Of a stretch of DNA of 64,000 bases, positions 26,901 through 47,900 are shown in pieces. A model generated the notes under the pieces. It was given only the letters and a program-made list of their open reading frames with translations. It did no database searches and was not told the DNA's origin. The DNA lies in assembly GCA_039621445.1 (NCBI GenBank), contig CP154954.1, positions 31,830,012 to 31,894,011 on the forward strand. The letters are read 5' to 3'. Position 1 is the first letter of the stretch. Each line of letters opens with the position of its first letter. Source of the DNA: Euglena gracilis. Taxonomy: Eukaryota. A program made the translations under genes and the position numbers.

Positions 26901-29900
26901 ATTGGGTACATATGCAGATATAATCCATTCAGAATAAACACCAATTGCAATTGTGGGAGTTTGCCCTTCAACCCCGACGGCTGCTTGCAGATTGTGGATC
27001 CCCCTGGCTCTCACATCCAGCAGTTGAAACAGAACGCCGCGACCACCACACGATCAGCCCGTGACGTTGCACGCCCCCACTGATAGTCTCCTGTGCCTCC
27101 TCTCACCGTAATCCCCAAATGGCCAACTTCAAAATGGGGGCTGATTTGGCTGACTTTTTAAGGGACTTCGGGTTTGCGCCCTTGGATGGCGGTGCATGTC
27201 TCGAAATGGTGTGGGTTGGCGGACGGGAAACAACTCTGTGAGGGCTAACCATTCAAATGGTGGCTCATGGAAGGTCAGCGGCCCAAGTCTTCGGATCGGA
27301 AGTGGGACGTGGCGGAGAAACCCAACGGCTGGCCATGTTTCCGAGACGACACGGACCCCAACCCCAAACCCATGCCCTGATGGACCCACACACAAAGCAT
27401 CAGGCAGTCGGAGCGACCAGGAAGGGGGGGGAGAGAGCCAGAGAGGCGGGGAAGGGGGGGCGTGGCCTTCAGCGGCCCGGCCACGGCGAACGCCAGCTCC
27501 TGCTCGTCGTCGCTGCCGAACGGCGTGTCGGACCACGGGTACAGCCACGCCTCCGCGGTGCAAGCCTGGAACGCCGCCATGAACGGCTCCGCGGAGGTCG
27601 TGAACCCTGTGCCAGGGCGTGAGCCCCTGGCCCAGAGATCTGGCCTTCTCTCGTTTCTCAAATCCTTTTAACCGTCCTGCTGATGCTGTGTGCGTGTGTT
27701 CAATTGATTTGAGTTGTGTTGAGTTATGTTTGTGGTGAGTTGTGTGTGTGTGTGTGTGTGTGGGTGTGTGTGTGTGTGTGTGTGTGTGGGTGGGTGGGTG
27801 GGTGGGCGTGGGTGCGCAAGTGGGTGCGTGCTCTTGCGTCGTCTATTCAGAATCTTTCTGATCATTAATCTCTTCAACATAAATTCAGAGTCAGAGTCAG
27901 AATTCAGATTCAGAGTCAGAATTCAGATTCAGAGTCTTAGTCAGAATTCAAATTCAGAGTCAGAGTCAGAATTCAAATTCAGAGTCAGAGACAGAGTTCA
28001 GATTCAGAGTCAGAGTCAGAATTCAGATTCAGAGACTTTCTGATCACAAATCTCTTCAACATAAAAATCATCGCCAACTGTTTCTTGTTTCAATTTCATT
28101 TCTTAGAGAAATATGTTTTGACAGCTTTTTTCAAAAAAAAAAACTGTGACCAGGGAATTTAGCCTTCCAAACAAAGCCCTTGGGACTTTGACTTAAACAA
28201 CCTCCCCTTTCCGCCTCTGTATGCGTGAGTGTGCGTGCATGGGCAAATGCAGTGAATGCTGTGGGTGGCGGCCGAAACAGAAACTTCTAAAAATCCAGAT
28301 CTAAGCAATTTGTATGAAAGGTTGAAAGGTTAGGGAGACGTCCGGCAAATGGTTACCATGGTTAGCCAACAGCTTTCCCCACCAGCACGAGCAATGTCTT
28401 TTGGCGTTTGAGTTTTCAGGCTCGTTGGGATGCTTGACAGGCGGCTTGAAAACACCTCTGGCACCCCCTGGATGGCGCTGGAAACCCTTTGGCAAGGGGA
28501 GCATGGCTGCAGCCGTTGGTGATCCATCCCCCTGAGCGAGACTCGGGAGGATGGCAAAAAAAATCAAATACCAGCAAATGCATCTCTGTCGGCGTTGATG
28601 ACTGAGCCCCCCAAAGCCGGCCCCTCTCTCAAAACACCCAAACACTTCAAAGAAAGCATCGGCACATTGCAAACGCTCCGATGCAACCTCGTAAAGCAGA
28701 TGCAGCCTCGGATGGAACCGACAAAAATCGTCTCACGTTGCGCCAAGCAAAGCAAAAAACCCGGCGAGGGGTTGATTCATGAGGTTCAAAACACCAGCCC
28801 AGGGAAAGTGAAATCACAAAGATCATAAAAATGAAATTGCAGCAGATGACGGAGGAGGTGGTTTAGGCATCGCACGCCCCACGGATGGATGGGGGTGAAC
28901 CAGGGTTGTATGGGAATCTCTGGGGGGGTGGGGGACCCCCCTCCTACCTCCAGTTTTCGGTTGCCGAAAATTTCGGCCGCTTTTGGGGGGGGGTCAAAAA
29001 GTCAATTTTCCTCAAATTTCTCAAAAAATGGTGGGGAATCAAAAGAAATGTCCAATACCTAGATTGAAGCCCTTAAAATGCCCTATCTAACAGTATTTTG
29101 ATATCCTGACAACTCCCCACCTGGCCCGAGTTACGGCCATTTTTTCGACAAATCTTGGCTATTTTGCCAAACTTTCATGTTGAGCCCTAAAATACACACC
29201 CGGTGCGAAGCGGCGGAAGATTTTTTTTTTGACTCCACAGAGGAGGAGGGGGGGGGATCCCCTTCCGAAACTGGGGGGGGTGGGGGACCCTCCCCACCAC
29301 CTTAACCCCTTAGGGGGTGACCCCTCCCCCCACCAACCTCATGTCTGCGGAGCTTCCCATACAACCCTGGGGTGAATGGACGGACGGAATGGATGTTCAG
29401 AGGATGGGTCGTCGGGCCGTTTTGGGGCCGTTTGCCACTGGGGCCGTGAGGGGCCGTTTTGGGGCCGTGAGGGGCCTCCATGTCAGGAGGGGGGTCCCAC
29501 CTTCCCCCCTCCCTCAAGGCTTTCATTCCTGACCATCCTTGTGGAAAAGCAGTGGATGGGAAAGGTTTGACGGCGTCCCAGAGCTGGAGCGAGGTGTCAG
29601 GAGCACCGCATGCCGGTGGTCCCTCACCGACGGCCGGCCACCTCCGCCACCTCCTCCACCTCCGTCTCGCGGCTCTGCAGCCACGCGTGGCAAGGCCAGG
29701 GTTCGATGTGAGGGCAGGTGGGGAGTGGGCCGTGGAACCCTCTTTGGTCCACGGGGAGCGCAGGGGACCCCCCATCCAAAACAGTGGCACGTTCCGGGGG
29801 ATTTTTGCCCCAAAATCAGGCAAAATGTCATTTTGGGAACTTTTTGGCAAAAAAGTTGGCAAAAATGCCAAAAATTTCGGCGCAAAAAGCTGGTAAAAAA

Positions 29901-44900: not shown

Positions 44901-47900
44901 ACACACACACACACACACACACACACACACACACACACACACACACACACACACACACACACACACACACACACACACACACACACACACGTATGACTCT
45001 CTGGGGGGGGGACATAAATTCACGGGCCAGGACCATTCAATTCCTCACATTCCCTCCACGTTGTTGAACGTTACTGGAATTTTCAGTTTGTTGGTTACAA
45101 ATTATAATACAAAGAGTGTAACCCCCCCCCCCAAATAACCTGGCGGGGTGCCAGGTTATTGGAACCAACTTTTGGCCCTGCCCCCCCGCCAGGTTATTTG
45201 GCCATTTTTTCAGCGCCGTAAAGGAATTTTGCCTAAAAAGGACCCCACCAAGTTACTGGAACCATCTTTTTTTGCCCCTCCCCCCGCCAAGTATTCGGCC
45301 CCCGCCAGGAGTTGGGACCCCGCCAGGTTATTTGGGGGGGTTTACCACTTTGATAAAAAAAATAGAATGATAAAAAAGAAAAAAGACAAAAAACATTTTT
45401 GCCTTTAATTATTTGCCGCCTTGTATTGCCAAATCCCAGCCCTCCCCTCCGGGGCTTTGGGAGTGCGCGCGCGGAAAAGCATCTCTGGGCAGGGCGTAGA
45501 GCTCTCGGCGCACCGTGGTCTTGGAGGCCAGCGCCACCGCCTCCACCGCCCGGAGGTCGAGGTCGTCCACCGCTGCCTGCAGACCCGCCAGCCCCAGGCG
45601 GGAACCCTGCCGGGCCGCCCCCCCCTCCCCCAGACCCCCAGACCTGGGGGGGGGGAGAGGGAAGGCCCCCCAAACACCGGGGGGGGGGGGTGGAACGGCA
45701 CACCCAAATATGCATACAAAAAAACCCCGCAAAAAACATCAATGATGCGAAACATACAAATGATGCGCCAAGGCAATGTGGCGGAGTTCAAGCAGTGGAA
45801 TACAGCAGCGTGCCACGCCGGGCCCCGGGGTTTCCGGCTGTCGAAAGGATCCCCGTCGGTCGGTCCCCTCAGGTCCGTCAGGCGGGGGCGGCTCTGGCAT
45901 GACCACCTGCGAGAAATGGCACCGTTGGGATCGCACCGGCCACGCCACATCACGGAAGGGACACCGGGGACAGAAGCAGGAAAAGGGTGCACAAAAAGTT
46001 TGGCAAATATTTTCAGGTGAAACCCAAATTCAAAAATGGCATATTTGGCTATCCTTGACCCCCTTTCAATTTTTTTTTTGGCACCTTGGGCCGGATTTTT
46101 TTTTGGTCCAGTGCTGGGCTGGACCCAGCTTTATTTCAGCATTTCATTTCATTTCCGGGGGATCCGCAGCCCAGATGGGGATGGAAAAGGGGGTTGGGTG
46201 TTGGCTGGGGGGGTCTGGGGTCCCACGAACTGGAAATTTTTTTCTGGCGCTGTTCGCCGAGGTGGAAATGAAGTCTTGGCTGATTTTTTTGTTCCCAAAA
46301 ATCCCAAAAATGGCCAAAAACGGGCATTTTTGGCAAATTTTGGGAGTCCAAAATTTTTTGGCGCTTTGCCGGTCACTGGTAAAAATTTCCACCAGCGAGC
46401 CCTGCTAGCAGACCTTCCAGGGGGCGGTCCACTAGAATTCCACTGGTCAAATTTAGACTGGCTGCAGTCCAGCCCCCTCCGAGGGGGCAAACCCTCAAGC
46501 AGAAGCTTGATTCCTGATGGCCGATCTTCTCCTGTTTATATGAGTGTATGGGGGGTTATGACTGCACTTTGCACAACTTTCATTTTGCACATTTGTGCAA
46601 TGTGGACGGTGAACATGGTGCACACGACAGGGCGACATGGACATTGCCATTTTTTGAGGGATGGTTTCAAAACAGTATTTCAGCACAACCCTGGGGGTTC
46701 TGAGCGAAAGCTGGAACAACACCCATGGGGTTTGCAAAATGCAAAAATTCGCGAGGATGAGACAAATTAGCAAAAGCATAGGAATTTCCTGCGTACCCAC
46801 TGGTGTGAGTGCTCTTGTCTAACCGCGGTTCATGAAAACCCCATTCCAATCTCAGCAACAATACCCAGCAGGTGAAAGGCCTTCGGACGTCTTTGGTCAG
46901 AAATCAGTCAGGGCACATAACCTTCTTTGGTTTGAAATGTGGCTGGGGACTGTGCCTGTGGCCATTGCACCTCTGTGGGGTGAGGGGCTCTGCAGCCCGA
47001 CTGGGAGCTGCTGGCTGGAAAAAAAAATGCAGGTACTGGCTGGCTGGCCGGACCACTCGATCATTGTTAACCTCTGCGTTCATTGTGTCCAAAGCCGGTT
47101 CGCTTGCACTGTGGTGTTCAGAAGACTGGGATTTTCGACTGGAGAGGCAGGCCCGTGGGAATTTGCCCAGGGATGGACAACCAGTGCCCGTGAGCAGGCT
47201 TCTTTTGACCGGGGGATGTCTTGTGCTCCCCCCCCCCCCCGTAATAGAAGCACGGGTGCACACCCCTGGAGTTGGTTTTGGGGTGGGTTGCGGGTAGTGC
47301 TCTAGCACACCCCCGGCGCCGAAGGCACCGGGGCCAAAAATGGCCATTTCCATGGGAACATGGGCCTGGTCAGCAAACACCGGGGTCCAAAACCGACCCC
47401 CCCCCCATGGAGGGGTGCCTGTGGGCAGGCACTGTAACCCCCCCCCCCAATAGAAGCACGGGGACGCTACAAGTGCAGGGTCCAAGTAAAAGCGGGCCAC
47501 CCACCGCCGAAGGCGGCAGTCCGCTACATGCGCACCCCCCATTTGGATTGGATGTCTCAAGGAAATTAACAAAAATCACACGGCTAGGGTCCAAATAGAA
47601 GCGCACCCCTCGCCGCTGGAGGTGGCGGCCCGCTGAAAGCGTGGTGTAAGGTCCGCTGTAAAGTGGAAAGCGCCCTACCACCCTGCCTGCCCATAGCAAC
47701 CCCCCCCCCCCCCGGGGGGGCCGCTATGCCGGCGGCTGGACAGGAACTGCAATTTGGCATTGGCTGGGGCTGCAGGCTTGCTGCCCCCCCCCCCCCACGG
47801 GCTGTCCTTCGGCTTAAGCGACGCCCTGGTCGGTATTCATTAACAATACTTTGCCTGGGACTCCCCCTACCCCCCTTCCAGGCGCTTGGCCCGGGCCTTG

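Follow-up and report, generated by a model that had tools for sequence, protein, structure and literature searches.

Two neighboring copies of one coding sequence share some introns and differ in others, which raises the question of when the unshared introns arose and by which route. The locus concerned lies on the minus strand at 27015..45606 of the window, meaning the whole 64-kb stretch of DNA analyzed here, where self-comparison of minus-strand reading-frame pieces reveals a two-fold protein repeat. It consists of two tandem paralogous genes, gene A and gene B, each with its own transcript. Together they contain 19 introns, five of which (A2, A8, B2, B3, and B7) have no partner in the paralog. 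These five carry better 8-nt junction repeats than the other 14, a contrast that is real by the octamer measure and that rests on five introns, mostly A2 and B7. The reading preferred here, with a probability of roughly 60%, is that the shared introns predate the duplication that gave rise to the paralogs and that the copy-specific ones were inserted later. The origin of euglenid nonconventional introns is debated between a transposon resembling a MITE (miniature inverted-repeat transposable element) and double-strand-break repair, with few cases for each. The locus offers an RNA-supported paralog pair in which introns of one type stand next to each other, the shared ones old and the copy-specific ones presumably young.

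Two tandem genes and their transcripts

The host sequence is GC-rich and eukaryotic, from a nuclear genome of the Euglena gracilis type, and contains numerous (CA)n/(GT)n runs; both genes are encoded on its minus strand. Gene A (EG_transcript_19837-like, 38310..45900) comprises 10 coding exons and nine nonconventional introns and encodes 224 aa. It starts with an ATG at 45900 and ends with a TGA at 38631-38633, and its 3' untranslated region (UTR) is traced to 38310. The pieces of its RNA contig lie at 38310-38685, 39112-39188, and 39831-39892; herein, the last exon runs from 38685 past the stop codon to 38310, 376 nt beyond the final junction. Gene B (EG_transcript_20991-like, 27011..35931) comprises 11 exons and 10 nonconventional introns and terminates with a TGA at 27011-27013. 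Its RNA contig begins at 35931 and covers 35846-35931, 35259-35297, 34802-34854, and 33364-33497. The 5' exon 35846-35931 holds two in-frame ATGs, at 35894 and 35855, which are the starts of the proteins P0003 and P0001, respectively. Given the P0003 start, gene B may encode 229 aa instead of 216.

The transcript proteins were reached with the 47-aa exon 27467-27607 as a query, which retrieves P0001 (eukprot EG_transcript_20991, 216 aa) at 98% identity. The prefix EG presumably stands for Euglena gracilis. A second protein, P0002 (EG_transcript_19837, 224 aa), is 51% identical to P0001. In the locus, P0002 aligns with gene A, the copy lying upstream, and P0001 with gene B, the one downstream. 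The spliced gene A model agrees with P0002 in 222 of 224 residues and the gene B model with P0001 in 213 of 216, both without gaps. Gene B also has a 130-aa isoform, P0003, which retains intron B5, reading through the B5 donor and stopping within the intron (32827-32943).

RNA was placed on the segment 33095-41340, comprising contigs of the runs X15 and X16, whose RNA nature is a guess, and raw reads of X21 and X24, which are recorded as RNA. Introns A1-A5 and B5-B10 lie outside this segment, and their junctions are taken from the transcript proteins. Hence, eight of the 19 introns are based on RNA (joints for B1, B2, B3, A7, A8, and A9; loose ends for A6 and B4) and 11 on transcript proteins only.

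The first-pass annotation had described the locus as an internal domain duplication within one gene, and the arrangement of the copies, head to tail on the same strand and about 2.4 kb apart, would suit this. Yet a TGA follows directly after the homologous C terminus of each copy (FNCYV in A and FNCWM in B), and the two transcript proteins are complete, of 224 and 216 aa, both starting with M. A 3' UTR contig belongs to copy A alone, and a separate 5' exon to copy B. No A-to-B joint occurs in the RNA contigs or reads of the four runs on the placed segment, and RNA depth is zero in all four at 35570-35844 and 36120-36394. The stop codon in each copy, the two proteins, and the missing joint thus identify a tandem gene duplication, and a single gene with duplicated domains is very improbable. 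At the protein level, A and B share 108 of 216 aligned residues (50% identity); their nonsynonymous divergence (dN) is 0.42, their synonymous divergence (dS) 0.85-0.98, and the four-fold sites agree at just 20 of 48. Judged from this dS and these four-fold sites, the duplication is old.

Some RNA observations differ from the window or from the gene models. At 38623, three of four first-mate-plus reads of X21 show G>T, and at 39126, three of four reads of X24 show A>C. Together with the protein mismatches (two in A and three in B), they look like strain or allele differences. Four off-model joints (33993>34109, 36726>37279, 37995>38180, and 38857>41096) were set aside as repeat or assembly noise; each is carried by one or two low-depth contigs with a shorter side of 21-24 nt, some with inserted letters.

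Anatomy, positions, and junction repeats of the introns

Of the 85 registers that reads or proteins allow for the 19 introns, none has GT-AG, GC-AG, or AT-AC ends. Instead, the two ends of each intron tend to pair with each other: the mean duplex stability of own ends is -25.85 kcal/mol versus -21.33 kcal/mol for 342 mismatched pairs, and none of 5000 permutations is as stable. The motifs CAG (at +4..+6) and CTG (at -8..-6) are present in one register in six introns (A2, A7, A9, B5, B6, and B7); A4, A8, B3, and B4 have them in part, and the others lack them. This end motif of nonconventional introns is described in passages of PMC12501133 as weakly conserved. Moreover, 15 of the 19 introns can be slid by 1-5 nt. 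From the ends and their pairing, it follows that all 19 introns are nonconventional and that neither gene has a conventional one. The earlier remark that the copy-specific introns are all nonconventional is, therefore, true and uninformative. Removal from mRNA is seen in RNA for the six joints and the two loose ends, and the other 11 introns are absent from P0001 and P0002.

Around the junctions, the 5' and 3' sides resemble each other within a narrow window. Over the 19 introns, in-register identity amounts to 49% at -5..+3 versus 27% outside, where the mismatched-pair null gives 32% and 29%, respectively. The edges are sharp: the two sides are identical at -6 in four introns, at -5 in 10, at +3 in 10, and at +4 in one. 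Where CAG/CTG alone sets the register (six introns), the two sides agree at 29/48 positions of the octamer and at 23/96 of the 16 positions around it (Fisher p = 2e-5); the four of these introns that are shared give 15/32 versus 15/64 (p = 0.019). In the same six, the ends are terminal inverted repeats, the 5' end matching the reverse-complemented 3' end at 8-13 of 16 positions (13/16 in A9 and 12/16 in B7). The element ends read CAG(A/G)G in A2, A4, and A7. As read from these sequences, the layout is that of a putative CAG...CTG element flanked by an 8-nt duplication, of which excision would take the element and one duplicate.

Intron positions were compared on the protein alignment of A and B with slide allowed; six of them coincide. 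A3 (43910..44248, protein mapping) shares its position with B4 (32942..33363), for which a loose RNA end at 33364 with its consensus at 32912-32941 accompanies the P0001 mapping. A4 (42969..43864, slide 4) corresponds to B5 (32391..32896), both by protein mapping. A5 (41713..42932) corresponds to B6 (30092..32353, 2262 nt) at the position after TAA, both being protein-compatible. The next two pairs surround homologous mini-exons, which are bounded by nonconventional introns on both flanks. In gene A, A6 (40815..41625) lies upstream of the 31-nt mini-exon 40784-40814 and is evidenced by a loose end at 40814 (two contigs and seven X21 reads) whose consensus is placed at 41626-41655. A7 (39894..40784; 39893-40783 by RNA, slide 5) lies downstream of it, with an RNA joint 39892>40784 in two contigs, four X21 reads, and two X24 reads. 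In gene B, B8 (28504..29638) lies upstream of the mini-exon 28475-28503 and shares the position of A6, and B9 (27609..28474) shares that of A7, both by protein mapping. The peptides of the two homologous mini-exons are nearly unrelated. Finally, A9 (38686..39111; RNA joint 38685>39112, slide 0) corresponds to B10 (27065..27466, protein mapping) at the position after L(R/K).

The most 5' introns form an additional, less exact pair. A1 (45594..45839, 246 nt, with a unique register from P0002) and B1 (35298..35845, 548 nt, slide 2; RNA joint 35297>35846 in two contigs and two reads) have the same phase and are offset by one codon within a poorly conserved N terminus. Nucleotide similarity between the A and B introns at shared positions was not found. 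Since six positions are shared, with one offset pair in addition, nonconventional introns are older than the duplication.

The five partnerless introns each fall where the paralog is uninterrupted. A2 (44367..45490, 1124 nt) has P0002-compatible registers from 44364-45487 to 44367-45490, and its sequence runs GCCCAG...CTGGCCCC; its octamers are gccct/GCC versus GCCCC/gcc, giving 7/8. A8 (39191..39832, 642 nt; octamer 4/8) has an RNA joint 39188>39831 with a slide of 3 (39189-39830), found in two contigs, four X21 reads, and three X24 reads; gene B is uninterrupted at the corresponding place (27467-27608). B2 (34856..35259, 404 nt; octamer 4/8) has an RNA joint 34854>35259 with a slide of 2 (34855-35258), found in two contigs and three X21 reads, and gene A is uninterrupted at 45491-45593. 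B3 (33498..34801, 1304 nt; octamer 5/8) has an RNA joint 33497>34802 with a slide of 0, found in two contigs and three reads. B7 (29692..30036, 345 nt) has P0001-compatible registers, and gene A is uninterrupted at 41626-41712; its sequence runs GCCCAG...CTGGCCTT, and its octamers gccat/GCC versus GCCTT/gcc give 7/8. The position of B3 lies 15 nt upstream of that of A2, and the possibility that the two are a single slid intron was ruled out. The codons between them are homologous exon in both genes, reading ELYAL upstream of the intron in A and ELHVL downstream of it in B. Hence, A2 and B3 occupy distinct sites.

The octamer score counts, by script, the identities between the 5' and the 3' junction at -5..+3, and it was compared between two sets, the five copy-specific introns and the 14 others. 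The former score 7, 4, 4, 5, and 7 (in the order A2, A8, B2, B3, and B7), with a mean of 5.4; the latter score 3, 3, 4, 3, 4, 5, 3, 4, 3, 2, 5, 3, 3, and 3, with a mean of 3.43. The difference gives p = 0.0049 in a one-sided Mann-Whitney test and p = 0.0060 by exact permutation (11,628 splits). Taking the maximum over the allowed registers yields p = 0.008, the mean over registers p = 0.005, and a register-free sliding 8-nt window p = 0.028. Leaving out A1/B1 gives p = 0.0065, counting them as copy-specific 0.0165, and treating each shared position as one unit 0.0061. For the 342 mismatched pairs of 5' and 3' junctions, the mean score is 2.55, and one pair reaches 7.

Much of the first-pass annotation of these introns stands. 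All nine of its octamer scores are reproduced with the octamer at -5..+3, and its five copy-specific introns lie at the coordinates it gave, exactly by RNA for B3, within the slide for B2 and A8, and compatibly with the proteins for A2 and B7. Among its shared introns, 38686-39111 is exact by RNA, and 41713-42932 and 30092-32353 are protein-compatible. The fourth, 39894-41610, does not exist: RNA resolves it into 39893-40783, the mini-exon 40784-40814, and 40815-41625, so that the supposed exon end ELAVR is intronic and one of the four shared scores came from a nonexistent intron. It also counted three shared positions instead of six plus the offset pair A1/B1, and it missed two gene B mini-exons (28475-28503 and the second small exon, 32897-32941); a 5' intron is present in both genes as well. 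On the corrected set of 19 introns, the better repeats of the copy-specific introns are borne out (p = 0.005-0.03, depending on the metric). Its core proposal, that some introns are older than the duplication and others were gained after it, is kept on a firmer statistical footing, with the framing as a single gene replaced.

Origin of the copy-specific introns and other features of the locus

For A2 and B7 at least, and perhaps for all five unique introns, we infer an insertion later than the duplication. In the mechanism proposed, each insertion would have brought in a CAG...CTG element with terminal inverted repeats and duplicated a target of about 8 bp. A machinery acting at the RNA level would then cut 3 nt ahead of CAG and 5 nt past CTG, removing the element together with one copy of the repeat and thereby restoring the reading frame. 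The repeat would decay with age, and older (shared) introns would, hence, score near background.

Several observations weigh against this reading. The comparison is one of five versus 14 introns, and most of the signal comes from A2 and B7. Wider windows are not significant (p = 0.063 for 10 nt, 0.085 for 12 nt, and 0.12 for 40 nt), and exact microhomology barely differs, with means of 2.4 in the copy-specific and 1.86 in the other introns. End pairing is no better in the copy-specific introns (A2 and B3 rank 6/18), and the 313-nt (CA)n run of A2 (44678-44990) does not look young. A blastn comparison of the 19 introns with the 64-kb window reveals no second copy of A2, A8, B2, B3, or B7. For 11 of the 19 junctions, the support is at the protein level only, and X15 and X16 are merely guessed to be RNA. 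Finally, the polarity of gain versus loss is presumed from the comparison of the two paralogs, not from an outgroup intron map.

The alternative polarity, with all five introns ancestral and the other copy having lost them by repeat-mediated precise deletion or recombination with cDNA, is unlikely. Direct repeats flank most introns, as the 15 slidable ones among 19 indicate, B2 and B3 are adjacent, as cDNA-mediated loss predicts, and no outgroup speaks against it. If deletion favored introns with good repeats, the surviving copies would even give the appearance of copy-specific introns with better target-site duplications. This route requires, however, an ancestral exon of 15 nt between the B3 and A2 positions. 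In addition, introns that predate the duplication (dS of about 0.9) should show decayed repeats, as the other 14 do with their mean of 3.43 against a null of 2.55, whereas A2 and B7 keep 7/8. That the difference in scores is an artifact of small samples or of register choice, with junction repeats being a general and age-independent property of Euglena introns, seems rather improbable. In parts of PMC12501133, 84.4% of E. agilis introns are given as slidable, conventional ones included; besides the fading of significance in wider windows and the similar exact microhomology, p rises to 0.045 when A2 and B7 are removed. On the other side, the canonical, the maximum- and mean-over-register, and the per-position-unit versions all give p = 0.005-0.008, and a score of at least 7 occurs in one of the 342 mismatched pairs, yet both introns with such a score are among the five unique ones.

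Even if the introns were gained, a transposable element need not have been the vehicle. Repair of double-strand breaks with filler DNA likewise generates short direct repeats and has been proposed, in sections of PMC4770533, for the 8-nt repeat of a new gapC intron. It fits with the finding that A2, A8, B2, B3, and B7 belong to no repeated family in the 64-kb window and that no transposase domain turns up there: Pfam detects none, and no match of any kind, in 109 of 173 long window open reading frames (at least 118 aa, outside both genes). Break repair is nevertheless a doubtful source, as the repeat has a constant size of 8 nt and a constant location between the CAG and CTG ends, and inverted-repeat ends with 8-13 matches in 16 are the anatomy of an element, unlike random filler. 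A more specific form of insertion can be put forward only tentatively, namely that nonconventional introns are miniature elements resembling the hAT superfamily, with CAG...CTG inverted-repeat ends and a fixed 8-bp target duplication. Excision would herein be measured from the paired ends, starting 3 nt ahead of CAG and ending 5 nt past CTG, and take the element and one duplicate. If this were true, the decay of the 8-nt repeat would be a clock of intron age, which paralog pairs would calibrate.

Only three of the 19 introns, A6, B6, and B8, contain dispersed repeats by blastn within the 64-kb window. One repeat of about 170-235 nt and 66-77% identity is present at 31115-31467, 28971-29166, and 48037-48253: two copies in inverted orientation sit in B6, one in B8, and one beyond the genes. 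Segments of A6 of about 65-100 nt recur at 17946-18048 and 47296-47358. These repeats are possibly mobile elements lodged inside old introns. Microsatellites of the locus measure 127-313 nt, including a 185-nt (GT)n run in A6 (41347-41531) and a 127-nt (GT)n run in B4 (32963-33089), and a long (CA)n/(GT)n microsatellite lies just downstream of gene B at 26635-26802. RNA-contig word depth reaches about 1080-1980 at 41070-41340, 156-384 at 38045-38319, and 126-305 at 36670-36944, where gene exons show about 10-50. These high-depth bins are high-copy expressed repeats outside the coding exons of both genes.

The products of A and B are orphan proteins of about 220 aa. A search with P0001 against 1.84 billion representatives yields only five proteins at E <= 0.001, including P0001 itself, and no orthologs from other euglenids. 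Apart from P0002 and P0003, they are P0004 (1980 aa), which matches P0001 over 38 residues, and P0005 (303 aa), a distant relative with a ubiquitin domain. Pfam finds no family above the cutoff in P0001 or P0002 (GGDEF_2 scores 18.7 bits against a cutoff of 24.5) and only subthreshold matches in 13 open-reading-frame pieces. A protein search with one such piece at near lengths gives no match, and an atlas search gives nothing usable, with a best score of 0.82. The best Foldseek match, MAF1, was rejected (E = 0.024; TM score 0.33-0.38; model pLDDT 67).

Comparison with known systems

Euglenid nonconventional introns, as portrayed in portions of PMC3935182, PMC4770533, and PMC12501133, have the same borders, end pairing, and junction repeats as the introns described here; their CAG/CTG places are both occupied in six of the 19. 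According to excerpts of a 2024 review (PMC11282704), such introns carry repeats resembling target-site duplications and CAG/CTG inverted repeats, and they are removed nonspliceosomally and excised as full-length circles. Their positions vary between close relatives, judging from parts of this literature, as they do between A and B, and the proportion that can be slid here (15 of 19) comes near the 84.4% in E. agilis given in passages of PMC12501133. There is no difference in kind; what distinguishes the locus is that 19 of 19 introns are nonconventional and that two mini-exons of 30 nt are bounded by them.

The idea that nonconventional introns derive from MITE-like elements, along with frequent gains, was put forward in sections of Milanowski et al. 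2014 (PMC3935182). The closest parallel is intron 4 of gapC in E. agilis ACOI 323, which in parts of Milanowski et al. 2016 (PMC4770533) is described as strain-specific and recently gained, with 8-nt direct repeats that exceed those of the other introns analyzed. There, as in A2 and B7 with 7/8, a young intron has the longer junction repeat. Its youth, on the pages concerned, follows from presence and absence among strains, whereas that of A2 and B7 is derived from absence in a paralog at dS of about 0.9. Introners, as summarized in portions of PMC11282704, likewise have terminal inverted repeats and border duplications resembling target sites, one copy of which is excised. They differ in occurring as many near-identical genomic copies and in being removed by the spliceosome, whereas no second copy of the copy-specific introns exists in the 64-kb window.

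MITEs of the hAT superfamily create 8-bp target duplications and have terminal inverted repeats starting with (C/T)A(A/G)NG. The 8-nt repeat window and the CAG(A/G)G ends of A2, A4, and A7 are alike, which serves as a lead only, since neither a transposase nor an element family is shown here. A full-text literature search found no paper that links nonconventional introns to hAT elements in Euglena and none that stratifies repeat quality by paralog-inferred intron age. The result supports the insertion model, and the test on paralog pairs can be extended genome-wide; taken alone, the locus is one small example. Compared with the published systems, the locus is a well-supported new example of a known pattern, reached by a different route.

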